From NCBI GenBank assembly GCA_965216215.1, contig CBDCFO010000008.1, positions 1,750,726-1,814,725 of the forward strand: a DNA stretch of 64,000 nucleotides, written 5' to 3'. The notes beneath the pieces are model-generated. The model was not told the origin of the DNA. It made no database searches and was given only the letters and a program-made list of their open reading frames with translations. Below, piece by piece: positions 22,388 through 36,424 of this stretch. How positions within the stretch are numbered: position 1 is the first letter of the stretch; every line of letters starts with the position of its first letter. Position numbers and translations under genes: made by a program. The DNA comes from Bryobacterales bacterium (GTDB lineage Bacteria > Acidobacteriota > Terriglobia > Bryobacterales > UBA6623).

Positions 22388-23083
22388 CTAGGGGCGGAGG
22401 TCGAACGCTGCAAGTAAGGCGCGATCTCGGGCGCGTGCCGCGCGGGGGAATCCCATTGGGTTGTATTCGTCCCGGAACACCACCTCGAACTCGGCACATT
22501 CCCGCCGCAAAGCCTCTTCGGTCGGAAACTCGAGCAACTCGGTCCGGATCCATCGCTCGACCAGGGAAGTGTCCAGACCGAAGCCGGAGAGGTACTCGTC
22601 GCGCCGTCTCGCCATCAGCCAGACCGCAGGCAGCAGGTATCCGCGGAACGGCCGGCGGCCCAAGGCAAACTCCCCGAGCATGCGGTCGCTCATACGCTGT
22701 AGCCGCAGCTGATTGAGTTCAGCAGGAGTGCACATGTCGAATTCCTGACGGCCGCAGTAGCGGGCGTCGTGCCAGACATGGCAAGCGCGACAGGCATCCG
22801 GCCGCGACCCATAGACCTGGCACTCGCCGCCAGCCAAGTACACGCACGGCCCGAGGTCCAGCAGACTGTTCAGGTCCGCATCAGGAGACAGGCGTCCCGC
22901 TGCCGACTCGACCGCTTCCGCAAGCTCAGGAGCGTCCTGGACTAGCGCGAGCGCCTCCGGGGATGAAATGATCACCGTCATGCGCTCGCAGCACGCAGAG
23001 CACCCAGGCGCGCAAGTCGGGCGCCCGATCGTGGCCTCCCACGATCGCAGGAGCTGGCCAATCGCAACGTCGATCGCGCTCAA
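22388..23083 (-). CDS. YkgJ-family cysteine-cluster (putative Fe-S/Zn) protein
   Basis: CAPGCSACC, CVYL...CQVYGSRPDACR. Confidence 0.75.
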   Translation of the reverse strand: MSAIDVAIGQLLRSWEATIGRPTCAPGCSACCERMTVIISSPEALALVQDAPELAEAVESAAGRLSPDADLNSLLDLGPCVYLAGGECQVYGSRPDACRACHVWHDARYCGRQEFDMCTPAELNQLRLQRMSDRMLGEFALGRRPFRGYLLPAVWLMARRRDEYLSGFGLDTSLVERWIRTELLEFPTEEALRRECAEFEVVFRDEYNPMGFPRAARARDRALLAAFDLRP

Positions 23084-23544
23084 CGGGCAGGCGAGACCTT
23101 GAGATTGCGGTAGTGCGCGACAGTCGAGCCCTCAAGCCAGAGTGCCACCTTCCCGGTCGCCCCGGCTCCGGACTTCACGTCGTTCACGATCAGTGTCGGC
23201 TGGTCAGCCCCGTTGACATAGAGCCGCGCTTTCTCGCCATCCACGACAATCTTGACCGGAATCCATTCACCCGGCACGATGTCGGCGTAAGTCTCGTACT
23301 TGCTGGGAGTCTCGCTGCGAAAGCGGTACCAGGTCCAATCCGGGTGCGAGATGTATTGCACCGTATGGTTGCGTCGCTCCTGGTCGTCGGCCCGGCCGTT
23401 GGTGGGCCTTAGATAGAAGCAATCGTAGTTCTTGTGGTCGTCCTGCAACCGCCAAGCGATTCCGACGAACCCGCGGGCGCCCTGCTGCGTCCCGGGAGCG
23501 GGCTGGCCGGAAACCTCGACTTCAATCGTGCCGTTGCCGAACTC
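23080..23544 (-). pseudogene. DUF1080-like (3-keto-disaccharide hydrolase-like) gene, 3' part
   Basis: FGNGTIEVEV...GFVGIAWR...FYLRPTNGRADDQERRNH; joins the 5' part in frame once the 12-kb insertion is removed. Confidence 0.85.
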
Positions 23545-23610
23545 AGAGGTGGTCCGGGGATTTGGACCACACGCTAAGGTGGACTTCGTCAAGGTTGAAA
23601 GGAGTCAACG

Positions 23611-23892
23611 ATGGCGAAGAGACGGACGTTCACGGCGGCGTTCAAGGCGAGGGTGGCGAAGGAAGCGTTGCGCGGGGACCGAACCGTGCAGCAGATCGCA
23701 GCCAAGCACGAACTGCATCCGAACCAGGTGAGCCAATGGAAGCGCACGGCCAGCGAGAGACTGGCCGAATTGTTCGAGCGGGCTGCCGGGCCCGGTCAGG
23801 ATGAGCGGGAGGCGGAGGTCCGCAAGCTGCACGAGAAGATCGGGCAGTTGGTGGTCGAACGGGATTTTTTGAAGCGCGCGTGGGAACGCTGA
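23611..23892 (+). CDS. IS3-family transposase OrfA (HTH)
   Basis: RRTFTAAFKARVAKEAL...HPNQVSQWK; GGAG RBS; slippery heptamer T TTT TTG at 23865-23871. Confidence 0.9.
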   Translation: MAKRRTFTAAFKARVAKEALRGDRTVQQIAAKHELHPNQVSQWKRTASERLAELFERAAGPGQDEREAEVRKLHEKIGQLVVERDFLKRAWER

Positions 23893-24734
23893 GCCGGACC
23901 ACGCGCAAGAGCTTGGTGCAGAGAGACCACCCGCAGGCGAGTCTGCGCCTGCAATGCCGGTTGCTGGGGGTGTGTCGGTCCGGGCTGTACTACCAGCCGC
24001 GGGAGGCGGATCCGGACCAGCTGGCGCTGATGCGGCGGATGGACGAGTTGTACACGGCGCATCCGTTTTACGGGACGCGGCAGATGAGCCGGCATCTGCA
24101 ACGGGAAGGCTATCCGGCCGGCCGGGACAAGGTGCGGCGGCTGATGCGCAAGATGGGCTTGGAGGCGGTCTACTGCAAGCCGCGCACGAGCCAGCCGGAT
24201 CCGGAGCACCGTGTCTATCCGTACCTGCTGCGGAACCTGGCGATCGAGCGGCCGCACCAGGCGTGGTGCGCAGACATCACCTACATTCCGATGCAGCGGG
24301 GATTCCTGTACCTGGTGGCGGTGATGGACTGGTTCAGCCGGGCGGTGCTGAGTTGGGCACTGTCGAACACACTGGACACGGAGTTCTGCCTGCTGGCGGT
24401 CGAGGAGGCGCTGGAGGGGTTCGGTCCGCCGGAGATCTTCAACACCGACCAGGGCAGCCAGTTCACGTCGCGGGCGTTCACGGGCTGTCTGGAAGCGGCC
24501 GGCGTGCGGGTGTCGCTGGATGGACGGGGCCGCTGGATGGACAACGTGTTCATCGAGCGGCTGTGGCGGTCGCTGAAGTACGAGGCGGTGTACTTGCAGG
24601 AGATGCCGGACGGGTTCGCGGCGCGCGCGGTCATCGGGGACTGGCTGGCGTTCTACAACCGGACCCGGCCGCATTCGGCGCTGGCGGGGAGGACGCCGTG
24701 GGAAATGCTGCCAGCGGGCAGCAGGCCGCGATGA
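23880..24734 (+). CDS. IS3-family transposase OrfB (DDE), -1 frame to OrfA
   Basis: WCADITY, FNTDQGSQF, DNVFIERLWRSLKYE, YNRTRPHSAL. Confidence 0.92.
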   Translation: MGTLSRTTRKSLVQRDHPQASLRLQCRLLGVCRSGLYYQPREADPDQLALMRRMDELYTAHPFYGTRQMSRHLQREGYPAGRDKVRRLMRKMGLEAVYCKPRTSQPDPEHRVYPYLLRNLAIERPHQAWCADITYIPMQRGFLYLVAVMDWFSRAVLSWALSNTLDTEFCLLAVEEALEGFGPPEIFNTDQGSQFTSRAFTGCLEAAGVRVSLDGRGRWMDNVFIERLWRSLKYEAVYLQEMPDGFAARAVIGDWLAFYNRTRPHSALAGRTPWEMLPAGSRPR

Positions 24735-25104
24735 GAGTGCGTGTGCGGGGTGCTGGCTGGGCCGGACGCCAACCGGCGGGCCGGAGAGGTCGGGCCGGAC
24801 GGGACCGCCTCGTTGTTCGGCACGCGGACGGCCCGCTGGTGCGCATGCCTCCGCTCGCGCTGGCGGAGAGAGTGCCGAGTGGACGCGAGATCGGCATGCA
24901 ACCAAAGGAGTTATGCGTGTCCGGGCGGCTCGGTTGCGGGCTCCATGCAACTGCATTCCAGCAATTGCGCCGACCCGCGCATGCAGGCCCCCCGCTGTTT
25001 GCTGGAACACCCGGACAAGCGCCACGGGTGTACGGCCGGAGACGTGGTAACGTTACCTGTTGCAGTGGCATCGGCCGCGGAGCGAGGAGGCGGAAGGAGA
25101 CGGC

Positions 25105-25442
25105 ATGGCCTTGCCGAACGCAGAGAAGCAACGGCGCTAGCGGGAGGGAGACCGGCCGGTCCGCTACCGCCGCCCGCAGGACCGGCGTTCGAATGCCCGG
25201 CGCGGGAGGGAGACCGGCCGGTCCGCTACCGCCGCCCGCAGGACCGGCGTTCGAATCCGCAACGCTGGCGCGACGCGGTGGCGGCCTTGGTGCAGTTGCA
25301 GGAGCACTATGGGGAGTGGCTGGAGAGCCTGCCGGAGAGTCTGCACGGGACGCCGCTGGGGGCGAAGCTGCGGGTGCTTAGCGAGGTGGAGCTCGACGAG
25401 TTGCAAGCCGTCGAGCCGCCGCTGGGCTACGGGCGGGACTGA
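25105..25442 (+). pseudogene. Passenger gene 1 (small basic/helical protein), inactivated
   Basis: GGAG RBS + MALPNAEKQRR, then TAG at 25138-25140; a 62-bp tandem duplication shifts the frame; intact-looking C-half RWRDAVAALVQLQ...EPPLGYGRD. Confidence 0.6.
25140..25256. repeat. 55-bp direct repeat x2, period 62 bp
   Basis: GCGGGAGGGAGACCGGCCGGTCCGCTACCGCCGCCCGCAGGACCGGCGTTCGAAT at 25140-25194 and 25202-25256. Confidence 0.95.
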
Positions 25443-25445
25443 GCG

Positions 25446-25694
25446 ATGAGGCTGCAGGCGGGCAGTGGGGGCTGGTTTGCCGCCGGCGAGGGGTGCGAGC
25501 GGGCGCTGCGGAGATTGAGCGATCCGGCGTTCAAGGTGTTGGCGTACGTGTGCCTGCGGGCCGAGCGGGCCAGCGGGTGGCTGGAGTTCGAGAGCAGCGG
25601 CTTGGCGCGGGAGTTGGGCAGGAGCCGTGCGAGCCTGGGACGCTGCCTGCGCGAGCTGGTCAGCCAGGGGATCTGCGAACTGGAGGCGGCCCCC
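25446..25694 (+). pseudogene. Passenger gene 2 (HTH-like protein), 5' part, interrupted by IS21
   Basis: LARELGRSRASLGRCLRELVSQGIC helix-turn-helix-like segment; continues in frame at 31210 after removing IS21 (ELEAAP|NQHRG). Confidence 0.75.
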
Positions 25695-26028
25695 TGTCCA
25701 GCGACAACTATTCTTGCCGGTGGCGACAACTAGAATTGCCGGTTGTGCTCCGTAAGTTGGAGGGCGGCAGAGGGAGCCCGAAGGGCGACCAATGCAGCCC
25801 TCGGATAGTAGCAGAGGGAGGGGGTAGCAGGGGGAAGCGCAGCCTCCCCCTCTCTGGGAGAGCAAGGCAGTCGGCAGTGCGAGAGGGGCCAGGGGGCGAG
25901 CCCCCTGGCCCGGAATTCGGCGCCGTTGGTCGGCTGCTTTTTTGGCGATCGTGTGACCGCCATAGCGGGGAAAGCGCGCGCGCTGTGGAACCGCCCCGGC
26001 TGGAGGCATTGCTGGAAGCGCTGCACGG

Positions 26029-26799
26029 CTACCTCTTCTCGCTTGCCTCGCCCTGGCGCCGGCGCGCTTGCTCGGCCCGGTAGCTGGCAATATCGAGTTC
26101 CAGAATCACCGAGTGGTGCACCACCCGGTCGACCGCCGCCGCCGCGGTCATCTTGTCAGGGAAAATGCTCTGCCATTGCGAGAAGACCAGATTGCTCGTC
26201 AGCATCACGCTGCGGCGCTCGTAGCGTTGCGCCAGCAGTTCGAAGAGCACTTCCATCTCGGCACGGTCCTGCCGGACGTAGCCGATGTCGTCGAGCAGCA
26301 GGCACTCGAAGCGGTCGAGGCGGTCGAGCTCGCGGCTCAGCCGTAGTTCGCGCTTGGCCCCGGCCAGGCGCTCGGTCAGCGCGCGCGCCGGGGCGAACAG
26401 CGTCGAGTGGCCACGCTGCACCAGTTCGGCACCCAGCGCCGCCATCAGATGGGTCTTGCCCGCGCCCGGATTGCCGAAGACACACACATTGACGGCGTCG
26501 GCCAGGAAATCCCCCTCGCACAGCACTGGCAGGCGGCCCCTCACGCCTTTGGGAAGACGCAGCAAGTCCAGCGTTTCCAGCGTCTTGCCCCGCGGCAGCC
26601 GGGCTTCCTTGGCCAGTCGCGCCACGCGCCGGTCGGCCCGCTCGACCGTCTCGACCGCGGCCAGTTCCGCCAGGTAGCGCAACGGGTCCCAGGCCTGCTT
26701 GCGGGCCTGTTCCGCCAGCCGTTCGCAATGCGCCGCGAACGACGGCAGGCGCAACTCCTTCAGGCGTCCTGGCAGCGCTGCCAGCTCCGGCCCCTTCAC
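26029..26799 (-). CDS. istB: IS21 helper ATPase IstB
   Basis: Walker A GNPGAGKT, Walker B LLLDDIGY, LTSNL, AAVDRVVHH. Confidence 0.93.
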   Translation of the reverse strand: MKGPELAALPGRLKELRLPSFAAHCERLAEQARKQAWDPLRYLAELAAVETVERADRRVARLAKEARLPRGKTLETLDLLRLPKGVRGRLPVLCEGDFLADAVNVCVFGNPGAGKTHLMAALGAELVQRGHSTLFAPARALTERLAGAKRELRLSRELDRLDRFECLLLDDIGYVRQDRAEMEVLFELLAQRYERRSVMLTSNLVFSQWQSIFPDKMTAAAAVDRVVHHSVILELDIASYRAEQARRRQGEASEKR

Positions 26800-27837
26800 G
26801 ACAGCCCCCGCGTGTCCGCCAGCAACTCGTCGTAGACGTCCAGGTCTGGTTCCGCGATGCGCACCTCCGGCGCCTCCGGCCGCGGCGGTGCCGCGGCCGC
26901 CCGGACGCGCTCGAACGACGGCCGCTCGCCAGCCTCCAGGCAGCCCTGCAGGGCCGCCTCCACACGGGTCTCCAGCGTCGTCGCCGCCAAGTGCAGGATG
27001 CGCACGTACTCGAGATCCGCGTGCCCCTGCGAGCGCCCCTCGCAGAGCTTGTCATAGGCCCGCCGGAAGGCCTCTGACGGAAACATCTCCTCGCGGTAGC
27101 GGTATTGCGCGAAGGCCCCCGGCTTGCGCAACAGCGCGTGCGCCACGTGCCGGTAGTCCACCCGGCCCGGCTGCTTGCCCAGCGCCCGGTCGTGGCGCGC
27201 CACCAGTTTCCCGCCGTAGTGCAATTCGACGCGATCGGTGTACAGCCGCGCCGTCAGCTGCTCCCCGATCAGCCGCGACGGCACCGAGTACGCCTTGCTC
27301 GCCACCCGCACCACGCTCCCGCGCGTCACCGTGCGCCGCTCTTCCCGGTACACCGGCAGCCGCCGCGGCGGCAGCGGCCGCAACGCCGCCTGCTCCGCCG
27401 CCAGCCGCTCCCCGCGCCGGCTGTTGCGCTGCCCGGCGATCTCGTCCAGCAACCGCGCGTAGCGCTCCACGGAACTGAAATCGCGTGTCCCGCTCAGGCG
27501 CAGCCGCTGGTCCACCGCGGTCTTGAAATGCCCGTGCGCCGCTTCCACGTCCCCGTTCTCGTGCGCGTTGCCCGGATAGTTCCGGCTCGCCGCCAGCCCG
27601 TAATGCGCCAGGAACTCCTCGTACGCCCGGTTGAACGCCCGCCCGCCGGACTGGCGCAACTCGTGCGTCGCCGCCGACAGATTATCGGTCCGGTGCTCCC
27701 GCGGCACCCCGCCCAGCTCCCACAGGCTCTCCTGCAGTCCGCCGACCAGCGCCTCGAACGTTTCCGAGCTCGCGATCGCCACGCTCTCCCAGTTCGAGTA
27801 CGGCAGCACGAAACGGTATACCAGGTGCTTGTACCGC
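26796..27837 (-). pseudogene. istA: IS21 transposase IstA, 3' part
   Basis: HLVYRFVLPYSNWE, RTDNL, ENGDVE; joins the 5' part in frame across the TSD (GERY|KHLVY). Confidence 0.9.
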
Positions 27838-27854
27838 CTAGCGACCGGACACAC

Positions 27855-27884
27855 TTGACACTGGCGCGGTGTTCTGTGTAGAAC
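27855..27884 (+). promoter_or_regulatory. Probable transposase promoter inside the IS4 left end
   Basis: TTGACA (27855-27860), 18-nt spacer, TAGAAC (27879-27884), just upstream of the GTG start. Confidence 0.5.
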
Positions 27885-27891
27885 GGGGGTA

Positions 27892-30201
27892 GTGCGGGTA
27901 GGGCTGCGCATTTTCCGTCCGCAGACGATCGCTTGGCTGCGAGAGGCATTACAGCTGGGCCAGCTGTCGCGGGCGGCCCTGGGTCGCGGGGTATGCGAGC
28001 GGGAGGACTGGCGCAACCCCAAGGGCGAGTATTGCACGGCCTCGGCGCGCAAGGTGCTGCCCGAGCTGGCCGGCCAGCTGGACCTGCCGCTGCCGCCGGC
28101 CCAGCCGGGTCCGCCCGCCTGCCGCCCGCGGTCCAGCCCGGACCCGCCCGTGCCGTCGACCGGCTTCACCGGCTCGCTGGCGGAACTCGGCGAGGTCCGC
28201 GTGCGTCTGGCCACCTCCGAGGCGGAGCGGCGGCTGTGCGCCGGACTGCTCGACCAGCACCATCCGCTGGGCCCGGGCCGGGCCCCCGGCTGTCGGCTGA
28301 GCTATCTGCTGGCAGCCGATTGCGGGCCGCTGGGCGTGCTCTCGTTCGTGGCGGCAGCGTTCCGGCTGGGGCCGCGCGATGCCTTCCTGGAGTGGGACGA
28401 CCGCACGCGCGGAGCGCACATCGAGCGGATCCTCAGCAACGACCGCTTTGTGCTGGTCCCGGGCGTGCAGGTCCCGAACCTGGCCTCGCACGTACTGGGG
28501 AAGACGATCAAGAGACTGGCCCGGGACTGGGAGCAGGCGCACGGAGTGCGGCCCTGGTTGGTGGAGACCTGCGTGCAAAGTTCGCGACCGGGCACGAGTT
28601 ACAAGGCGGCCGGCTGGCAGTGCGTGGGACCGACGCAGGGGCGGCCGCCGGGAGCGGGCGAGGCGGTGGAGACGAAGGCGGTCTGGCTGCTGGGTTTGGA
28701 TGCGAACTGGCAGCAGCAGCTGTGCCGGAAGCCGGAGCAGAAGCTGGGGCAGTACCCGGAGTTGGTGCTGGACGAGGAGGCGAACTGGGCACGGCGGGAG
28801 TACCTGCGTTCGGACCTGCCGGACGGGCGGCTGCGGCAGCGGCTGGAGCGGCTGGGGCAGAGCTGGGAGCGGCATCCGGGGGAGGATCTGCCGGCAATCT
28901 TCCCGCACCAGGGGGAGCTGCGGGCGGCGACGCGCCTTTTGCACAATGACAAGGTGCAGGATCGGGATATCTTGCAGCCGCACCGGGAGGCGTTGCTGGA
29001 GCGGGTGCAGGTGGAGTCGACAGTGTTGCTGGTACAGGACACGACGACGCTGAACTACACGAACCTGCAGGGTTGCACGAGCGGGTTGGGGCCGTTGCAG
29101 GACCGCGCGAGCAGTTCCCGGGGGCTGTTCGTGCACGCGACGGTGGGGTTCACGGAAGGCGGGCGTCCGCTGGGGGTGAGCGGGCTGGAGCGGTGGGCGC
29201 GGCCGGAGCAGGAGCCGGACCCGGAGGCGGAGCAGGAGCAGGAGAAGGAGAGCCGGCGCTGGTTGCGGGGGTTCGAGCAGGGTCAGGAGTTGGGGCGGGA
29301 GAGTCCGCAGGCGCGGGTCGTGGTGGTGGGGGACCGCGAGAGCGACATGTTCGAATTGTTCGAGCGGCAGGCGGAGCGGACGGAGGAAGCCGGGTTGCTG
29401 GTGCGGGTGCACTTGGGGCGGCAGCGCAAGGTGCGGGCGTGGGACGCGGCGTTCCGCTCGGAGATGATCCGGCCGATCGAGGCGCAGCCGGACTTCGAAG
29501 AGGCGGTGGTGACGGGCCGCAAGGTGGAGATCGAGTCGCAAGGGGGGCAGCGGGCGCGGCAGAAGCGGACGGCGGTGACGGAGATCCGGATCGGGCGGGT
29601 GGAGTTGCTGCCGCCGAAGGGGCGGGCCGGAGCGGTGGCGCCGGTGCCGGTGTGGCTGGTGCGGGTGCTGGAGCCGGACCCGCCGGCGGGGGAGGAGGCG
29701 TTGGAGTGGCTGCTGCTGTCGAGTGAGGGGGGGCGGACAGCGCAGTGGGCGGAGCGCATCGTGAGCTGGTACGAGCGGCGCTGGGGGATCGAGGAGTATT
29801 TCCGGCTGCTCAAGACGGGGACGCGGATCGAGGACCGGCGGTTGCGGGACGCGGAGGCGCTGGGCAAGTGCCTGGTGTTCGACGCGATCACGGCCTGGCG
29901 GGTGTTCAGCCTGGACCGCTACGCCCGGGACGCGCCGGACACGCCGGCGGAGGAGGTGCTCACGGCGGACGAGATGGCCGTGATCGAGGGCGTGACGGAG
30001 ACGGAGCGGTTGCGGCCGCCGCGGGAGCGGGGCCAGCCGGTGGGACCGGGCATTCGCAGTTGGGTCGTGCTGCTGGCGCGCATGCGGGGCTGGCGTCCGA
30101 AGAAGCACCGGGAACTGCCGGGGAACGAGGTGCTGTGGAAGGCGTACCAGCAACTGCAAACGATGGTGCGCTATCGGCAGGCGCTGCGAGGACCGCCGTA
30201 G
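27892..30201 (+). CDS. DUF4338 (DruA-like) domain fused to an IS4/Tn5-type DDE transposase, 769 aa
   Basis: N-part QHHPLG...LSNDRFVLVPGVQVPNLASHVLG...VETCV...YKAAGW...GPTQGR; C-part QDTTTL, VGDRESD, YERRWGIEEYFRLLK (YREK). Confidence 0.85.
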   Translation: MRVGLRIFRPQTIAWLREALQLGQLSRAALGRGVCEREDWRNPKGEYCTASARKVLPELAGQLDLPLPPAQPGPPACRPRSSPDPPVPSTGFTGSLAELGEVRVRLATSEAERRLCAGLLDQHHPLGPGRAPGCRLSYLLAADCGPLGVLSFVAAAFRLGPRDAFLEWDDRTRGAHIERILSNDRFVLVPGVQVPNLASHVLGKTIKRLARDWEQAHGVRPWLVETCVQSSRPGTSYKAAGWQCVGPTQGRPPGAGEAVETKAVWLLGLDANWQQQLCRKPEQKLGQYPELVLDEEANWARREYLRSDLPDGRLRQRLERLGQSWERHPGEDLPAIFPHQGELRAATRLLHNDKVQDRDILQPHREALLERVQVESTVLLVQDTTTLNYTNLQGCTSGLGPLQDRASSSRGLFVHATVGFTEGGRPLGVSGLERWARPEQEPDPEAEQEQEKESRRWLRGFEQGQELGRESPQARVVVVGDRESDMFELFERQAERTEEAGLLVRVHLGRQRKVRAWDAAFRSEMIRPIEAQPDFEEAVVTGRKVEIESQGGQRARQKRTAVTEIRIGRVELLPPKGRAGAVAPVPVWLVRVLEPDPPAGEEALEWLLLSSEGGRTAQWAERIVSWYERRWGIEEYFRLLKTGTRIEDRRLRDAEALGKCLVFDAITAWRVFSLDRYARDAPDTPAEEVLTADEMAVIEGVTETERLRPPRERGQPVGPGIRSWVVLLARMRGWRPKKHRELPGNEVLWKAYQQLQTMVRYRQALRGPP

Positions 30202-30648
30202 CAGCCCGCGCCGGGGCGGGCGGGGAGTGTCTGGTGGAACGGCATCCGCCGGTTCTCCGCAGGGGGCCGTCAGGGGGGAGTGCAGAACTCTCCCATGGAG
30301 GCACTGTCGTGGGCAGGGAAGCTTCTCGCCAGGGCTTGATGCGTGCCGCGTGTCGGGAACACCTTGGCGCAGCTCGAAGTCTGCCCGCTGTTCCCCAGTG
30401 ATCCGTTTTCCCAACCAATGCGTGACGGCCGAATGGGACCCATTCGCAACGCAATGACCGGAATGGCAACGCTGGCCGTGCAGCCCCAACCCGGTTCCGC
30501 CCGATGCGTGCGTCTGTCGTGCTGCGCTGGTCTCCCTCGTCTCGCCCCCCAGTATGCGGGCGGCCCATCCGGCACCATCAAGACCGAATGTGAGCATCAA
30601 TCCACGATTGCCTCGAAACTTCCAGCATCAACTATGTCCGGTCGCTAG

Positions 30649-31109
30649 TTGTACCGCTCGCCCCGGATCGTCACCCCCAGCGCGCCCATGTCGGTGAAGT
30701 CCGACTGGCACTGCGCCCCCGGCTCCCGCTCCTGCTCGAAATAGACTTCCCGGTCCGGACCCTGCCGCACGCGCCAGGCCCGGAATCGCCGCTGCAACGT
30801 CCGCAACTGCCCGGACTGCAATTGCCCCGGATGGCGCCGCTGCAGCTCCTCGAACACCACCTTCGCCTGCAGCCCCGGGTCCGCTCGCAGCAGGGCCTCC
30901 GCCTCTGGCCACAGCGCTTCCAACGGATCCTCCCGCGTCCGCCAGTGCCGCGCTGGACTGGGGTCGCTCGGAAGCTTCCCGCTATCGCGCCATTTGCGAG
31001 CCGTGCGCTCGCTCATGCCCGCTTTCGCCGCCGCCGTTGCCAGCGGCTTGTTCCTTCTTAGTTCCTTCATCAGTAGCCTCACTTGTTGGTTTTTGATCAA
31101 CGCCTCCAC
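30649..31109 (-). pseudogene. istA: IS21 transposase IstA, 5' part
   Basis: AAAKAGMSERTARKW HTH, WRTREDPL, LRTLQRR, QSDFT. Confidence 0.9.
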
Positions 31110-31203
31110 CCTCCCTGGGAAGGGTCGAGTCTAGCCGCCAACTACGAGGCTCACCCGGAACTTTTAATTGTCGTTACCCGGAATTTCTAATTGTCGCTGG
31201 ACA

Positions 31204-31743
31204 GCCCCCAACCAGCATCGCGGTTCGCGCTTGCGGGTGCGGGAGGAGTACTGGCCCTACGAGGGCCGGACGGAGGCGGCGGCGCGGACCGCGGCAGGTG
31301 CGGCCGGGGAGGTGGGTGCGTATGTCGAGCGGGTGCGGGAGATGTGCAGCAAGCCCGCCTGCGTGCAAGCTGGATTCGGGCCCGCCGACGAGCGTCTGGC
31401 GGCGGACTGGCAGCGAGCCGGGGTGAGTCTCGAAACGGTGCGGCGGGCGATCCTGCTGGGCAGCGTACGGCAGTTGACGAGCATGATCGACCGGCCTGGG
31501 AGCGAGCCGGTCCGCAGCCTGCGCTATTTCGCCGGTCTGGTGGAGGAAGTGCGCCAGGAGAGGCTGTCCGCTGGTTGCTGGAAGCACTTGGAGATCTCAC
31601 TCGAGCGCTGCGAACGGTACTGGCGGTCGCGGACCGAGCAAGTTGCGGGGCGTGCCTGTTCAGATTTGGACCAAGCAGCCCCTCTCGGAGGGGGCGAGAT
31701 CCCCTCAGCGGTCAAGCAAGAGCAAGACGAGCAGACGGGATGA
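31204..31743 (+). pseudogene. Passenger gene 2, 3' part
   Basis: PNQHRGSRLRVREEYWPY...VRRAILLGS...RSLRYFAGLVEEV; in frame with the 5' part. Confidence 0.75.
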
Positions 31744-31766
31744 TGATGATCTCCAATTGAGGTACA

Positions 31767-33777
31767 GTAGAGTCGGGGAGCGACGCGCGCACCTTAGCAA
31801 AGAGGCAGTAGCCGTTTGGGAGTAGTCCTACGGCTTTCGCCATGTGTAGGTGCCTCACTGGCCCTCTCGCCTAGCCACGTTTCCGCGCCCCGCTCGTCAA
31901 ACCGGACGTGCGGCTTTCCCGCATCCGGCTTTCAGTGCAGATCATGCCTTCGCCCACGGAAGGCTCTTGGTCGTCTGCGTCAGGCGCACGAGGCCGTACT
32001 CACCGTACAGCCGGGCGTCCGGGAACAGCACGTATTGCCCGGACTTCACCTTGTGTTTCCGACAGAGCCACTGGCGCAGCCGCCGGACCGCGTGGCGGTC
32101 AATCGCGTTGTACGCCGGACTCACCTGGCCCAGATGGAAGTAGTTCGCCCATCCGGTTAGGCACCGGTTCAGGCGTTCTACCATTTCCTCCCGGGTCAGT
32201 TGCCCGCTCCTCGGCGATGTCCGCTCGCTGATCTTGCGGCAGATGCTCTGGACGCTAGCCTTGCTTGGGCGGGTGCCGATATACGGTCCTTTCCCGCTGG
32301 GCCTGTAGTTGCGTCCTATGCGGTATCCGAGGAACTCGAACGGCTCCTCCGGGCACCGCAGGCATCGGGTCTTCCGTTCGTTGACCGGCAGTTTCAGCTT
32401 CCGCATCAGCCGCTGGACTTCCTCGAGCATTGCTGCTGCCGGAGCCCTGCCGAGCACGCAGAAGTCATCCGCATAGTTCACGATCTCCGCTCGGAAGCGC
32501 TCGGCGTGTCCCCGCACCTTCCAGCCCAGGATGAAGCGCCGCATGTAGAGGTTGCTGAGCAGAGGCGAGATCGGAGCCCCTTGCGGGGTCCCTTTCCGTG
32601 CCTGCCTCGCCCGGTTCGTGCGGTGTTTGCCGCCCTTGCCGTCATCCTCCTCCACGGCCATCTCCAGCCACGCCTTGACTAACCCCAGCAAGCGCCCGTC
32701 GCTCACGCGTCGGGCCACGCTCCGGAGCAGTTCGGCGTGCGGGATCTCTCCGAAGTAATTCGACAGATCGCCGTCAACCACTTCATTGCATCCCTTCCTC
32801 AGCAGGCTGTGGACGCGGCTCACCGCGTCGTTCGCGCTGCGTCCCGGCCGGTAGGCGTGCTGCTCCGGTTGCAGGTCCGCTTCGATGATCGGTGCCAGCA
32901 CCAGCAGGGCTGCCGTCTGCGCTACCCGGTCCCGGATGCAAGGTATGCCCAAGGGCCGGAACTTGCCGGGCTGCTTCTTCGGGATCAGCACCTGTCGCAC
33001 CGGTTGCGGTGCGTAGGTGCCGTCCTGCAGCTCCCTTGCCAGTTCCCCGAGCCACGCTTCCGCCCCTCGCTCCTCGATGTCGACGAAGCTCTCCCGGTCC
33101 ACTCCAGCACTGCCGCCGTTCCGGCGGACCTGCGCCAAAGCCTCCCGCAGGATATCCTCCCGCCACATCTTGTCGCTCAGCGCATGGAACCGTCGCCCCG
33201 GTTCTTCCTTCGCTTTCGCATGTAGCACGGTCTGGAGTTTCCGAACCCTAGCTGGCCCTGTTAGACGTTCGTCAGTGGCCATGCCTTGCCTCCTTTCCGT
33301 ACCTCTCTGCACTCAAGGCCCCTTCCCTCCACGGGCATTACCCCGCCTCTGCGGTAGTACGGGCCTATCCGCCACCCTGCCCGGCCCGGCCTGCCCCTCG
33401 CGGGGCTCCGGTTGATGCGTGCTGCATCACCGGCAGGGCTTCCCGTGTTGCTGCTTCCTTCCTCTTCCATGCGTGCCAGCGCCATTACCCCGGCGGGCGC
33501 GGGTCGGTGCCTGTGACGCTCTCTTCCCAACCCGCCGTCGGCCTTCCCCCTAATCACGAAAGGGTCGGCTCCCGCGTTAAATGTTTCGAGGCCTGCTCGG
33601 CGTTCACTCGCGTTCTAGCCCGCATGCTCGCTGAGCCGCCCAAGGCGGCCCTTTGACACCAGAGTGCTTCAGCCCATTTCGTTACCTCCATGAACCGCCC
33701 TGGCTGCTACCAGCCGGAGCATCAGTTGCTGGACGGGATTCGCACCCGCTGAATGGAAGCGCCTTTCCACGGCGCAC
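31767..33777 (-). mobile_element. Group II intron (2,011 nt) with RT/maturase
   Basis: 5' end GUGCG (33777); domain V AAGCCGGAUGCGGGAAAGCCGCACGUCCGGUUU; domain VI ending CCCCGACUCUAC (31767). Confidence 0.93.
31942..33282 (-). CDS. ltrA: Group II intron reverse transcriptase/maturase (no endonuclease domain)
   Basis: RPLGIPCIRDR, GTPQGAPISPLLSNLYM, YADD, FEFLGY, domain X LTGWANYF; ATG 33282 behind AGGAGG. Confidence 0.93.
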   Translation of the reverse strand: MATDERLTGPARVRKLQTVLHAKAKEEPGRRFHALSDKMWREDILREALAQVRRNGGSAGVDRESFVDIEERGAEAWLGELARELQDGTYAPQPVRQVLIPKKQPGKFRPLGIPCIRDRVAQTAALLVLAPIIEADLQPEQHAYRPGRSANDAVSRVHSLLRKGCNEVVDGDLSNYFGEIPHAELLRSVARRVSDGRLLGLVKAWLEMAVEEDDGKGGKHRTNRARQARKGTPQGAPISPLLSNLYMRRFILGWKVRGHAERFRAEIVNYADDFCVLGRAPAAAMLEEVQRLMRKLKLPVNERKTRCLRCPEEPFEFLGYRIGRNYRPSGKGPYIGTRPSKASVQSICRKISERTSPRSGQLTREEMVERLNRCLTGWANYFHLGQVSPAYNAIDRHAVRRLRQWLCRKHKVKSGQYVLFPDARLYGEYGLVRLTQTTKSLPWAKA

Positions 33778-33886
33778 GCAGTTCTCAATTTGGCCTTTTT
33801 CTATCTCGCGAGCCGCTGAGGGGCCGGTAGCAAGGGACCAGTTTCTGGGGGCTTAACTTTGCGGACACCGCTTTCAAACATAAAAT

Positions 33887-35215
33887 GTGCCCTCCGTTTC
33901 CAATTCCCGGGTGCTCGATTCCCTTCTGGACCGCTTCCAACAAGCCGCCTCCGCCCTGCCCGACCCCCGGACCGGCTCCAACAAGCGCTACGCCGTCTCC
34001 GATGCCGCTGTCTGCGCCCTCTCCACGTTCTTCTTCCAGTCCCCCTCCTTCCTCGACTTCCAGCGCCGCATGCACGAGGAGTCCGCCCGCTCCAACTGCC
34101 ACTCCCTCTTCGGCGTCAGCAAGATTCCGAGTGACAATCAGATTCGGAATCTGCTCGACGGTCTCGACCCCTCCCTGTTCGCCGACCTGTTCCCCCTCTG
34201 CCTCGACACCGTCCGCGACCAAGGGGGCCTCGACGGGATCCAGTTCCATGGCTCGGACTCCATCCATTGCGAGCAGTGCTCCACCCGCCATGTCGGCAAG
34301 CACAAAACCAAGCAGTTCTTCCACACCATGCTCTCGGCCACTGTCGTCGCCGACGGCCACAACCGCGTCCTCCCGCTCATGCCGCTGTTCGTCCAGCCCC
34401 AGCACGACCCCGCCGCCAACCGGCCCGACCTGACCGAAGACCAGCGCAAGCAGGATTGCGAGCGCAACGCTGCCAAGCGCTGGCTGCCCGCCCACAGCCC
34501 CGCTCTGCGCCCCTACCGGCCGGTCCTGCTCGGCGACGATCTGTACTGCTGCCAGCCCCTCTGCAAACTCGTCGCCGACCTCGGCGCGGACTTCCTCTTC
34601 ATCTGTAAGCCCAGCAGCCACAAGACGTTATACAAACAGCTCCCCAACCGCCGCATCTGGTCCACTGGCTGGATCCGCACCCGCAACCACCGCCAGCAGA
34701 TCGAGTCCCATCGCTACCAGTGGAGAAACAACGTGCCGCTGCGCGCCGGCGACGACGCCCTGAAGGGCACCTGGATCGACTTCGAGATCGGCCGCAACGG
34801 CGAGCGCACCTACCACAATTCGTGCTTCACCCGCCTCAAGGTCACCGCTGACAACGTGGCCGCGATCGCCCGGGCGGGCCGCGCCAGATGGAAAATCGAG
34901 AACGAGCAGTTCAACTGCTTGGCGCGGCAGGGCTACAACCTCAAGCACAACTGCGGGCACGGCCGCCAGGGCCTGGCCAATCTGCTCGCCACGCTGAACC
35001 TGTTCGCCTTCGCGCTGCATGCGGTCCTGGACTGCGTGTCCGACCTGTGGCGGCAATGTCGGGCGCGCGTCGGCACCCGGCGCAAGTTCTTCGCGACCCT
35101 GGGCTTCCTCACGGAGTGGTTCTGCTTCCGCAGTTGGACCGCCCTGTTCGAGACCGTGTTGAGGAAGCGCCCGCCACCGCCCGCTCCCGGGGCGGCCGCG
35201 TGCGCCCCCGCATGA
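33887..35215 (+). CDS. ISNCY-like DDE transposase
   Basis: LPDPRTGSNKRY, IPSDNQIRNLLD, LDG, GDDLY, GRARWKIENE; may carry a short in-frame deletion before the first Asp. Confidence 0.8.
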   Translation: MPSVSNSRVLDSLLDRFQQAASALPDPRTGSNKRYAVSDAAVCALSTFFFQSPSFLDFQRRMHEESARSNCHSLFGVSKIPSDNQIRNLLDGLDPSLFADLFPLCLDTVRDQGGLDGIQFHGSDSIHCEQCSTRHVGKHKTKQFFHTMLSATVVADGHNRVLPLMPLFVQPQHDPAANRPDLTEDQRKQDCERNAAKRWLPAHSPALRPYRPVLLGDDLYCCQPLCKLVADLGADFLFICKPSSHKTLYKQLPNRRIWSTGWIRTRNHRQQIESHRYQWRNNVPLRAGDDALKGTWIDFEIGRNGERTYHNSCFTRLKVTADNVAAIARAGRARWKIENEQFNCLARQGYNLKHNCGHGRQGLANLLATLNLFAFALHAVLDCVSDLWRQCRARVGTRRKFFATLGFLTEWFCFRSWTALFETVLRKRPPPPAPGAAACAPA

Positions 35216-35538
35216 CGCAACCTGCCCGCCATCCTGCCAGCGACAGGCTCCTCTTCCAGTGGCCCTCAGTGGGGGTGCGTTGCGGCCAGTCCATGACCGC
35301 GTCATTGCCGCTGCCAGACGCCTCGACCCCCCGGATACCGAGTCAACAGCCGTCCGATCACCCCGCAACGGGTTCCAACGGCGCACACAAACGCTCGCAG
35401 ATTCCACCCCACACGAGTCAGACCCCCATTCTGAGAATCGCTGATTGAGGTATACTCACCTTGGTCGGTAGGTCAGAGCAGTAGCGGAGTCCACTTTAAA
35501 TTCACCGACCAGTGGTCTAAACACATCGGACCACCTCA

Positions 35539-35853
35539 CTCCACTCCCTCAATAACCGCAAGATGGTTCGTGCGCAGGCTCTCGAAGGTCCCCGGCCCGC
35601 GGACCTGCTCGCCCCGGGCGCTCATTTCCTCGATCATCTTGCGACGCTTGGCGGCAGCCGCTTGCAAGACCTCCGGATCAGCAGCTAGCTTGAGACCCTG
35701 ATGGCCATCCAGGGTATCGGGAGTGGCCTCCACGTTCACCAGTTCCAGGCCATCCGCAGAATCCAAAGCGAACTCCTGACCGGACGCCGCCAACGCGGCG
35801 ACCGCTAGTCCAACGGCTACCTTCGCAACTGGCCTGATGCACCAAGTGCTCAT
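35539..35853 (-). pseudogene. DUF1080-like gene, 5' part (signal peptide)
   Basis: Signal peptide, then ...NHLAVIEGVE; the ORF stops at the TGA supplied by the IS3 IR. Confidence 0.85.
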
Positions 35854-35881
35854 GGCGAGGCCCTCGCTTACAAGCCGCGGA

Positions 35882-36424
35882 CTAGTTGCTCCAGGGCGGA
35901 ACGACGCCGTTGACGCGACCGTATGCGATCAACTGGCCCAGGTGCTCGCTGAGATGCGTGAGCGCCATCGTGAGCGCGCCACGCGTGGTCGTGTCGCGAC
36001 CGAACAGCTTCATCGGCTTTTCCGCGTCATCCGCACCGAACTTCCCCATCGCGCTTTGGAGGTGATCGAACGACATCTTCACTTTCGAAATGACTTCCTG
36101 CTTGTCCGTCGTCGACTTCTCGAGCCCGCGCAAATCAAGCCCTTCGGGCGGCATCGTACCCAGCGCACGCGAGACAAAGTAGTTGGCACCCGCTACATGC
36201 AGCAACACCTCGCTCACCGAGCGGACACCTTCGCCGGGCCGGTAGGTGTACTTGTCAGCGGGCATCGCTTCAGCCAAGCCCGCGAACTTTTCAGCCGAGG
36301 CGCTCGAGACCGCTTGCGCCTCCTTCACAAATGCGTGTCCGTCGGCGCACAACAGCGGCGCTACGGCAACAGCCAGCACGCACAGCAATGCCGTACGTCG
36401 GATGGTTTCAAGCATGGGATTCAC
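35882..36424 (-). CDS. DinB family protein, exported
   Basis: AEAMPADKYTYRP, RSVSEVLLH, HLSEHLGQLIAYGR, PPWS. Confidence 0.85.
   Translation of the reverse strand: MNPMLETIRRTALLCVLAVAVAPLLCADGHAFVKEAQAVSSASAEKFAGLAEAMPADKYTYRPGEGVRSVSEVLLHVAGANYFVSRALGTMPPEGLDLRGLEKSTTDKQEVISKVKMSFDHLQSAMGKFGADDAEKPMKLFGRDTTTRGALTMALTHLSEHLGQLIAYGRVNGVVPPWSN

Follow-up and report, generated by a model that had tools for sequence, protein, structure and literature searches.

A nest of insertion sequences and a group II intron, three layers deep, in a Bryobacterales chromosome

Nests in which one insertion sequence (IS) lies within another belong to the general biology of insertion sequences in IS-rich bacterial genomes and plasmids. 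The canonical members of the IS3 family (IS3, IS150 and IS911) are about 1.2-1.6 kb long, and ISs that carry extra genes are known from the IS66 family and as 'transporter IS'. Insertion sequences can also be targets for retroelements: the group II intron RmInt1 homes into ISRm2011-2, an IS630-family element of Sinorhizobium meliloti, and its insertion blocks the spread of that IS (PMC5894124).

We analysed a 64,000-nucleotide stretch of DNA (the window) from a member of the Bryobacterales (Acidobacteriota) that contains such a nest. As in known IS-in-IS nests, the elements appear to have inserted successively, each IS has its own inverted repeats (IRs) and target site duplication (TSD), genes of the outer elements are inactivated, and the order of events follows from the nesting. 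Compared with those nests, this one holds five elements, each of a different kind, in three layers, with perfect TSDs throughout and an uninterrupted reference for each layer. It is a cleaner example than most, not different in kind. What sets it apart is a single feature, an uncharacterised but conserved third gene common to IS3- and IS21-family elements, and this accessory gene is a more useful lead than the nest itself. The nest provides a clean teaching example of IS and group II intron mobility in soil Bryobacterales, and for annotation it delimits five elements, so far unnamed, to the base, together with their TSDs.

All five elements, their ends and the four TSDs were confirmed base by base. 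The nesting topology and every TSD given in an earlier sequence-only reading of this DNA can be read directly from the letters, and our protein-family matches agree with its family labels. The chance of finding identical 9-mers at two prescribed positions is p about 4e-6 for each of the 9-bp TSDs. Excision of each layer left sequence that was 99-100% identical, over its full length, to uninterrupted copies on independent metagenome contigs. Simpler versions of the layers, for which the reading had suggested a search, exist: the IS3 element without IS21 or ISNCY insertions (L001, L002, L006, L007), IS21 without IS4 (L003, L011, L012, L014), the ISNCY-type element without the intron (L011) and the chromosome without any layer (public runs X2, X6 and part of X4). 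Joints for every form that lacks a layer were found in four runs, among them 27828->30649 (IS21 without IS4), 25688->31204 and 31755->35444. Every layer is multicopy in the metagenome, with a depth about 5-15x that of the flanks, and no other copy of any layer lies within the window. As all layers are at least 99% identical to other copies, everything in the nest is recent. We conclude that the nest is very probably genuine and arose by recent, successive transposition events and retrohoming in a Bryobacterales genome rich in ISs. That the outer element came first and the inner ones later follows from the topology alone.

The outermost layer is an IS3-family element (23545-35538) with the ends AGAGGTGGTCCG... 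and ...CGGACCACCTCA. Its TSD, CTC, is read directly at 23542-23544 on the left and at 35539-35541 on the right. A 4-bp duplication (ACTC) also fits the window, and the relatives of the element decide for 3 bp. Elsewhere, the TSD is GTT in L001 and a perfect 3-bp repeat in five of five copies of the L022-L027 relatives; two of three bases match in L003, and copies L002, L004 and L006 have no matching TSD. The left IR (AGAGGTGGTCCG...GACCAC...AAGGTGGACT) occupies 23545-23600 and the right IR (ending ...CGGACCACCTCA) 35483-35538, both given on the plus strand. The right terminus is ...CCTCA, the left terminus is AGAGG, not TGAGG, in all copies, and 11 of the 12 terminal bases are complementary. 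On the plus strand, orfA (23611-23892) encodes 93 aa with a Pfam HTH_Tnp_1 domain, and orfB (23880-24734) encodes 284 aa with HTH_21, rve and rve_3 domains and matches NCBIfam transpos_IS3 at 271 bits against a cutoff of 160. From a slippery heptamer, T TTT TTG (23865-23871), the -1 frame runs on into orfB. The outer IRs and OrfAB had looked intact in the earlier reading. This is true of OrfA and of OrfB, whose protein sequence is identical on 10 other contigs; in the left IR one T is missing at 23560, relative to four other aligned copies and contigs from four runs. The element also retains the remnant of a 95-aa ORF (25105-25442, plus strand), which has a stop at 25138-25140 because of a 50-bp tandem duplication (exact copies at 25140-25194 and 25202-25256).

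When the inner layers are excised, the IS3 element measures 2789 bp, a native size of about 2.8 kb, and it is at least 99% identical over its full length to L001, L002, L006 and L007, which have different flanks. It shares with other members of the IS3 family the pair orfA (HTH) and orfB (rve DDE) with a -1 frameshift between them, the 3-bp TSD and the ...CA at its right end. It does not have the compact, transposase-only format of 1.2-1.6 kb, as the native element carries the 95-aa ORF and a 260-aa gene. Unlike the canonical elements, it is natively 2.8 kb long (2.1 kb in the L022-type relatives, of 2083 bp, in which the accessory gene overlaps orfB), its left end is AG rather than TG, and its slippery site is U UUU UUG. 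The extra length in both groups is due to the conserved third gene.

The sequence-only reading had all of the elements landing in mobile DNA. The outer IS3 element sits instead in a chromosomal gene of the 3-keto-disaccharide hydrolase/DUF1080 family, and the genes flanking the nest are housekeeping genes. The 3' half of the interrupted gene lies at 23080-23544 (minus strand) and the 5' half at 35542-35853; its product is a secreted protein of 258 aa, and the gene is uninterrupted in empty-site contigs. The empty site (...GCCGAACTCCACTCC...) was found in public runs X2 and X6 and in part of X4, and the 11,997-bp skip that corresponds to it has full flank depth in X2 and X6. The occupied site was found in X1, X3 and X5, and in X3 and X5 contigs of 2665 nt cross the right junction between IS3 and flank at flank depth. 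Empty and occupied alleles thus coexist in public samples, and both are present in sample S1.

Within the accessory gene of the IS3 element lies an IS21-family element (25695-31203, minus strand; ends TGTCCAGCGACAA...TTGTCGCTGGACA), which is 5509 bp long with its IS4 insertion and 2689 bp without it. Its TSD, GCCCCC, is read directly at 25689-25694 and 31204-31209. The element is canonical for the IS21 family, with two genes (istA and istB), TGT...ACA ends and a 6-bp TSD, and it has repeated subterminal CGACAA motifs. The intact istB (26029-26799, minus strand) encodes the 256-aa AAA+ helper IstB_IS21 (NCBIfam IS21_help_AAA, 238 bits against a cutoff of 200). On the same strand, istA is divided into a 5' part with the HTH region (30658-31109) and a 3' part with rve and Mu-transpos_C_2 domains (26796-27837), and NCBIfam transpos_IS21 matches both pieces; the gene is uninterrupted (484-494 aa) in L012-L016. 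Without IS4, the element is 99.6-99.9% identical over its full length to L003, L011, L012 and L014. The copies in L011, L012 and L014 have their own 6-bp TSDs, and L003 has 5 bp and an extra short duplication. The window and L003 have independent insertions of this IS21 at two different points of the same accessory gene.

The element that divides istA belongs to the IS4 family (27838-30648, plus strand). It is 2811 bp long with 27-nt IRs that are 85% complementary, and its TSD (TTGTACCGC) is read directly at 27829-27837 and 30649-30657. Its transposase gene (27892-30201) encodes 769 aa, with an N-terminal DruA/DUF4338-like domain (E = 1e-17) followed by Tn5-type DNA-binding, DDE and dimerisation domains; it matches NCBIfam transpos_IS4_3 at 288 bits against a cutoff of 160, as well as Tnp_DNA_bind. 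The DDE_Tnp_1 domain, Tn5-type N-terminus, short IRs and 9-bp TSD are those of IS50/Tn5-like members of the IS4 family. The element is 100% identical to L019, and the L017 copy has a 9-bp TSD. In L025, a related DruA-IS4 lies within the orfB of a related IS3 element.

Near the right end of the IS3 element lies an ISNCY-type element (31765-35443, plus strand), which is 3679 bp long with its intron and 1668 bp without it. Its TSD (ATTGAGGTA) is read directly at 31756-31764 and 35444-35452, and the left copy lies about 13 nt beyond the stop codon of the accessory gene. The IRs are 18 nt long; the left IR is CAGCAGTTCTCAATTTGG after removal of the intron, and the right IR, as reverse complement, is CAGCGATTCTCAGAATGG. 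The transposase ORF (33887-35215, plus strand) encodes 442 aa. Its closest annotated relatives are labelled 'ISNCY family transposase', come from cyanobacterial plasmids and share 35-40% identity over more than 90% coverage. ISNCY is a holding category rather than a family, and we assigned the element to it by similarity to transposases so labelled; Pfam DDE_Tnp_1 is matched just at threshold (23.0 bits), and NCBIfam gave no match. A 42-bp in-frame deletion near 34228 takes out PFLRLDGRLLIALD, so the window's transposase is probably inactive. An exact look-up of this protein returned nothing; contigs from the runs have the undeleted form. The intron-free element in L011 has a 9-bp TSD.

The group II intron (31767-33777, minus strand; 2011 nt) interrupts the ISNCY-type element in its left IR, between bases 2 and 3. 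It has the end motifs (5' GUGCG, 3' ...CUAC), a domain V/VI core (31767-31933), D1-D4 (33608-33751) and a reverse transcriptase with a maturase domain, and Rfam models RF00029 (42.6 bits, gathering 40) and RF02003 (77.5 bits, gathering 49) match. The ORF (31942-33312) encodes 456 aa with RVT_1 and GIIM domains (TIGR04416, 323.5 bits against a cutoff of 300); the searches revealed no endonuclease domain in this protein. The same intron occupies the same left-IR position in a 78%-identical relative of the ISNCY-type element (L012), and in run X1 the IS tip and intron adjoin several different flanks. Among the inner insertions, it is for the intron only that these sequence comparisons support a target preference. 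A candidate EBS1, GCGGUUC (intron nt 80-86, presumed to belong to domain I), could pair with GAACUGC of the 5' exon. We propose that the 5'-exon recognition sequence lies within the left IR, so that every copy of that IS family would be a homing site. As the intron parts the tip of the IR from the remainder, it would immobilize the IS copy that it enters. The intron resembles RmInt1, which as a bacterial group II intron also has a multicopy IS, and relatives of that IS, as its natural target and blocks the IS on insertion. Unlike RmInt1, which has its site inside the IS, the window's intron sits at the very tip of a terminal IR, and its host is an ISNCY-type element with DDE_Tnp_1. It is a further, probable case of a group II intron homing into an IS, here at the tip of an inverted repeat, and thereby disabling it.

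Could real insertions have been threaded by the assembler into one path, with the layers not all on one molecule? The source is a metagenome and every layer is present in many copies, which would make such a chimera conceivable. For the IS21 left-end and ISNCY right-end junctions, no contig in X1, X3, X4 or X5 spans the joint, and contigs stop at the repeat ends; a search for the IS21 left junction (60-nt query, 31-mers across) gave no matching run, and exact protein look-ups of two junction-specific ORFs returned nothing. That all layers lie on one molecule therefore rests on the assembly and the matched TSDs. As repeat ends are where De Bruijn contigs should break, this silence weighs little, and we regard these null results as uninformative rather than as evidence against the nest. 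However, a switch of path would pair foreign flanks, and each inner IS layer has the same TSD on both sides (6, 9 and 9 bp); the flanks rejoin to sequence 99-100% identical to intact copies, and the outer junctions were confirmed in independent runs. A chimera is thus very improbable. Another possibility is that the nest was built elsewhere and then moved into this gene as one 12-kb unit bounded by the IS3 ends. The IS3 element encodes intact OrfA and OrfB, the latter the same as in other copies, both IRs are present, all layers are recent, and the chromosomal site is either empty or carries IS3 ends, a form of data that cannot reveal intermediates. However, short contigs could not have detected intermediates at the locus in any case, our searches found none of the inner junctions a second time, the arrangement is absent from all ten other contigs with this OrfB, and the left IR has its private 1-nt deletion. 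The suggestion that the 12 kb might move as one unit has thus found no evidence, and we consider such a move quite unlikely.

The sequence-only reading also raised the possibility of targeting. As described above, this gained support for the intron. For the three inner ISs (IS21, IS4 and ISNCY-type), an active preference for mobile elements, beyond mere survival there, would account for the same IS21 in two different sites of the accessory gene (window and L003), for its copy inside an IS5-like transposase gene (L011) and for the DruA-IS4 inside orfB in L025. However, the insertion sites of the inner ISs have no common consensus, nor do the target sites of the IS21 copies, and the same IS21 is also found in a type I-E CRISPR array (L016) and, in unrelated DNA, beside unrelated genes. 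Two of eight IS21 copies in IS3 DNA fits survival bias in a genome with many ISs. We therefore doubt that the inner ISs prefer such targets; neutral survival in selfish DNA suffices as an explanation.

We propose the following history for successive insertions into this site. A 2.8-kb IS3 element would have entered the 3-keto-disaccharide-hydrolase-family gene and duplicated CTC. Subsequently, in either order, the 2.7-kb IS21 element would have inserted into the accessory gene (6-bp TSD) and the 1.7-kb ISNCY-type element into the short stretch of non-coding sequence that precedes the right IR (9-bp TSD). Last, the 2.8-kb IS4 element would have inserted into istA (9-bp TSD), and the group II intron would have reached the left IR of the ISNCY-type element by retrohoming. 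The insertions of ISs into other ISs probably persist because they hit dispensable selfish DNA, the loss of which costs the host nothing, and intact copies could still serve the interrupted elements in trans. At present, the outer transposase, IS4 and istB are intact. In contrast, istA is split, the ISNCY-type element has a deletion in its transposase and a split left IR, and the accessory gene and the 95-aa ORF are broken.

The accessory gene was earlier called a passenger gene. It is a conserved gene, the third one in elements of the IS3 and IS21 families. In the window it is cut by IS21 into a 5' part (25446-25694, plus strand; codons 1-83, winged helix) and a 3' part (31210-31743, plus strand; codons 84-260, five-helix domain). 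In Bryobacterales, the conserved 260-aa protein is the product of the gene that comes last in multicopy elements of the IS3 and IS21 families, and its family comprises 774 cluster representatives at E <= 1e-10. In IS21 relatives from the same bacterial order (3485 bp), a 250-aa accessory gene is third and overlaps istB by 4 bp, within the IRs; it is an addition to the canonical istA and istB of the window's IS21 element. The relatives' elements that carry the gene are multicopy with clean TSDs and have it within their IRs, and its translation is coupled to that of the last transposition gene. A full-text literature search found no paper on a third ORF in IS21 elements. Like the IS66 family and 'transporter IS', these elements have conserved genes besides the transposase. 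Unlike them, they share one extra gene family between two IS families (IS3 and IS21), and it has no known relatives or function.

We tentatively suggest that the accessory protein is not cargo but a new factor for transposition or its regulation that has been exchanged in Bryobacterales between the IS3 and IS21 families, which look unrelated but are similar in mechanism. A role in transposition or in its control would make it a new component for two well-studied transposon families. Our searches for a family assignment found none. A sequence pattern and a PHROG DnaD-like match (E = 0.37) had suggested a DnaD-like protein, and the full-length model weakly matched 9a5c_B, a DnaD-containing integrative model (E = 3e-3, TM 0.23). 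We rejected this identity because a confident model of the C-terminal domain (pLDDT 89.6) had no match in the PDB (best E = 0.32) and the profile, searched against PDB sequences, found generic winged-helix regulators only. A link to defence was also rejected, as PADLOC gave no match for the accessory protein, the 95-aa ORF or the IS4 transposase. Finally, a hidden sixth layer between orfB and the accessory gene was considered and rejected: the corresponding gap in L004 is a deletion between short GCCGG.GAGG repeats, which also takes away the conserved N-terminus of the accessory protein.

Direct reading of 23400-36000, with every boundary re-extracted by script, bore out the anatomy and the nesting order that the sequence-only reading had given to these five mobile elements, and its family labels agree with Pfam and NCBIfam. 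The outermost layer is an IS3-family element (23545-35538, 11,994 bp) with the ends AGAGGTGGTCCG... and ...CGGACCACCTCA and the target-site duplication (TSD) CTC. Its orfA and orfB were identified by Pfam and NCBIfam (271 bits in NCBIfam), and orfA leads into orfB via a -1 frameshift at T TTT TTG (23865-71). The accessory gene of this element (25446-25694 plus 31210-31743) holds an IS21 element (25695-31203; TSD GCCCCC), which ends in TGTCCAGCGACAA and TTGTCGCTGGACA and carries repeated subterminal CGACAA motifs. Within istA lies an IS4 element (27838-30648; 27-nt inverted repeats, or IRs; TSD TTGTACCGC). Both IstA halves were recognised, IstB scored 238 bits and the IS4/Tn5-type transposase 288 bits. 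Near the right end of the outer element is an ISNCY-type element (31765-35443; 18-nt IRs starting CAG; TSD ATTGAGGTA). Its transposase is just at the DDE_Tnp_1 threshold and no higher, and the closest annotated relatives, on cyanobacterial plasmids and labelled ‘ISNCY family transposase’, are 35-40% identical. A group II intron on the minus strand (31767-33777, 2011 nt; 5' GUGCG, 3' ...CUAC; no TSD) interrupts the left IR of this element after its second base, in the order CA / intron / GCAGTTCTCAATTTGG. The Rfam hits for its domains V/VI (31767-31933) and for D1-D4 (33608-33751) both exceed the gathering scores, and its RT/maturase scored 323.5 bits. No further copy of any layer was found elsewhere in the 64-kb window.

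The nest was most likely built by sequential transposition plus retrohoming of the intron, with the insertions surviving in selfish DNA. The mechanism is ordinary, and the nest is a known kind of thing, made from new members of known families. Each layer was excised in silico, and the healed sequence (the element with its inner layers cut out) was compared with contigs found through exact-protein look-ups. An ‘empty-site’ reference was found for every layer, as the sequence-only reading had suggested looking for. The healed outer element (2789 bp) matches four loci end to end at 99% or more (L001, L002, L006 and L007), all with different flanks. The healed IS21 (2689 bp) matches L003, L011, L012 and L014 at 99.6-99.9%; its own 6-bp TSD surrounds it at each of the last three, and at L003 it has a 5-bp TSD, GCGTC, and an unusual further duplication some 13 nt long. 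The IS4 is 100% identical to the copy at L019 and has a 9-bp TSD at L017. L011 also carries the ISNCY-type element in intron-free form; its left IR is contiguous there (CAGCAGTTCTCAGTTTGG), and its TSD is 9 bp. The IS3-element copies at L002, L004 and L006 are on low-coverage long-read contigs and are without matching 3-bp TSDs, which may stem from recombination of one copy with another or from switches in the assembly; L004 and L006 have the right flank CTCTGCG in common.

The region was also compared with public sequencing runs holding the chromosomal flank (X1-X6). X2 and X6 show the empty chromosomal site: a contig exactly at flank depth runs directly from 23540 to 35538, without the 11,997 bp that separate them here. 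The right IS3 junction is crossed at flank depth by a 2665-nt contig in X3 and X5, and the left one is crossed in X1. X4, which comes from the same sample as X1, contains both empty and occupied forms. Joints of IS21-less, IS4-less and ISNCY-less forms were found in all four of X1, X2, X3 and X6. Depths in X3 relative to the flank, which are rough, were 5-6 for the IS3 element, 15 for IS21, 8 for IS4, 12 for the ISNCY-type element and 14 for the intron; this suggests approximate community-wide copy numbers relative to the flank.

The nest could instead be an assembly chimera, in which layers from different loci were threaded together. In narrow windows at the IS21 left end and the ISNCY right end, no run contig crosses and contigs break at repeat ends; words spanning the IS21 left junction matched no run, and exact look-ups of two junction-specific ORFs gave no match. 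The co-linearity of all layers therefore rests on the assembly plus the logic of TSDs and healing. A path switch inside a repeat would join flanks of different loci, whereas each inner IS layer has one and the same duplication (6 or 9 bp) on its two flanks, and these rejoin into sequence that is known. We consider a chimera unlikely. Movement of the whole 12 kb as one unit, which the sequence-only reading had also raised, is possible in principle and without support.

That reading further stated that all of the elements had landed in mobile DNA, and took this to suggest a safe haven or targeting. The statement fails for the outer element: without the nest, the minus strand has an unbroken reading frame across the site for a 258-aa secreted protein of the 3-keto-disaccharide hydrolase (DUF1080) family, so that a chromosomal gene was interrupted. 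The genes nearby encode a TPP enzyme, oxidoreductases, an aldo-keto reductase, DinB, uroporphyrinogen decarboxylase and a GAF-SpoIIE phosphatase, and the 64-kb window has no tRNAs. Relatives of the outer element are nearly all in Bryobacterales MAGs, which makes this order its likely source.

Evidence of targeting exists for one layer, the intron. L012 has its first 179 nt, 100% identical, at the equivalent left-IR position of an IS relative that is only 78% identical; the two junctions compared read GAGAATTGC/GTGCG against GAGAACTGC/GTGCG. In X1, the IS tip plus intron is adjoined by several different flanks. Group II introns read the 5' exon by base pairing. Here the 5' exon is inside the IS and the 3' exon holds only two IS bases; therefore, every copy of the ISNCY-type IS would be a homing site. 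RmInt1, whose natural target is ISRm2011-2, an IS that is blocked by the insertion, is a precedent for such homing to an IS (PMC5894124). For the ISs themselves, the evidence for targeting of mobile DNA is at most suggestive. At L003:2540-5260, an independent insertion of the same IS21 lies in the same accessory gene, about 180 bp downstream of the site in the window, and at L011 this IS21 lies in an IS5-like transposase gene; a related IS4 lies in orfB of a related IS3 element at L025. The same IS21 is also present in unrelated DNA, and its target sites are without a shared consensus. At L016:3100-7800, beside cas genes, it is inside a type I-E CRISPR array (29-nt repeat CTGTTCCCCGCACACGCGGGGATGAACCG, 61-bp period), with a DruA-type IS4 just beyond. 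To account for the IS pattern, it suffices that insertions survive in dispensable DNA.

The layers differ in how intact they are. OrfB is identical to OrfB on ten other contigs; the outer left IR is without one T at 23560 when compared with four other aligned copies. A 50-bp tandem duplication (25140-25256; 62-bp period, two exact 55-nt copies), private to this IS3-element copy, breaks the 95-aa ORF ahead of the accessory gene with a stop codon. The accessory gene and istA are split, by IS21 and IS4 respectively; istB is intact, as is the IS4 transposase. Near 34228, the ISNCY-type transposase has lost 42 bp in frame between CCTCGAC repeats, a deletion that takes out PFLRLDGRLLIALD directly ahead of an LDG that is conserved. 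Judging from other DDE transposases, this would be the strand that bears the first catalytic aspartate. L011 and contigs of X1, X2 and X3 have the undeleted form. This ISNCY-type copy is very probably dead because the intron splits its left IR.

What merits following up is the accessory gene, which is common to IS3- and IS21-family elements. When healed, it encodes 260 aa with only a weak HTH_36 match. The family comprises at least 167 close relatives and 774 representatives at E <= 1e-10 in a 50%-identity library; every source-named member is a ‘hypothetical protein’, and NCBIfam, PHROG and PADLOC gave no assignment. In multicopy elements of both families, the gene comes last in the gene order (loci L022-L027, L028-L039 and L040-L119). 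The IS3 type (orfA-orfB-gene, 2083 bp) has the termini of the element in the window, a 4-bp overlap of the gene with orfB, and perfect 3-bp TSDs in five of five copies. In the IS21 type (istA-istB-gene, 3485 bp), the IRs enclose the gene, and this type has TSDs of 5-6 bp. Directly upstream of the gene, at 80 loci in species-representative genomes, is IstB in 53 and IS3 OrfB in 17. The family is almost wholly in Bryobacterales MAGs, and one genome has dozens of copies of three subfamilies.

In the AlphaFold prediction, the protein begins with a winged helix and ends with a confidently modelled five-helix domain (pLDDT 89.6), and the model of the latter had no match in the PDB (best E = 0.32). 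A DnaD-like identity was not supported. Our best guess is that the protein may bind DNA and act in transposition as an accessory or regulatory factor. Damage to the gene is frequent: IS21 insertions (the window and L003), an N-terminal deletion (L004) and a frameshift; therefore, persistence does not require the gene in cis. An extra A near 31521 (31520-31521) in L001, L002, L007 and contigs of X1, X2 and X3 is a +1 frameshift that shifts the last ~70 codons and gives a 266-aa form; the window and L006 keep the family-matching frame (260 aa). L004 has a deletion variant of the IS3 element (at L004:4950-5010), in which 692 bp between short GCCGG.GAGG repeats are missing; the loss includes the 95-aa ORF and also the N-terminus, a conserved part, of the accessory protein.

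The IS4/Tn5-type transposase (27892-30201) has an N-terminal domain that matches DruA (Pfam, E = 1e-17). DruA was formerly DUF4338 and takes its name from the Druantia defence protein; this transposase had no match among the PADLOC models. Related versions of 777-779 aa are found at L016 and L025.
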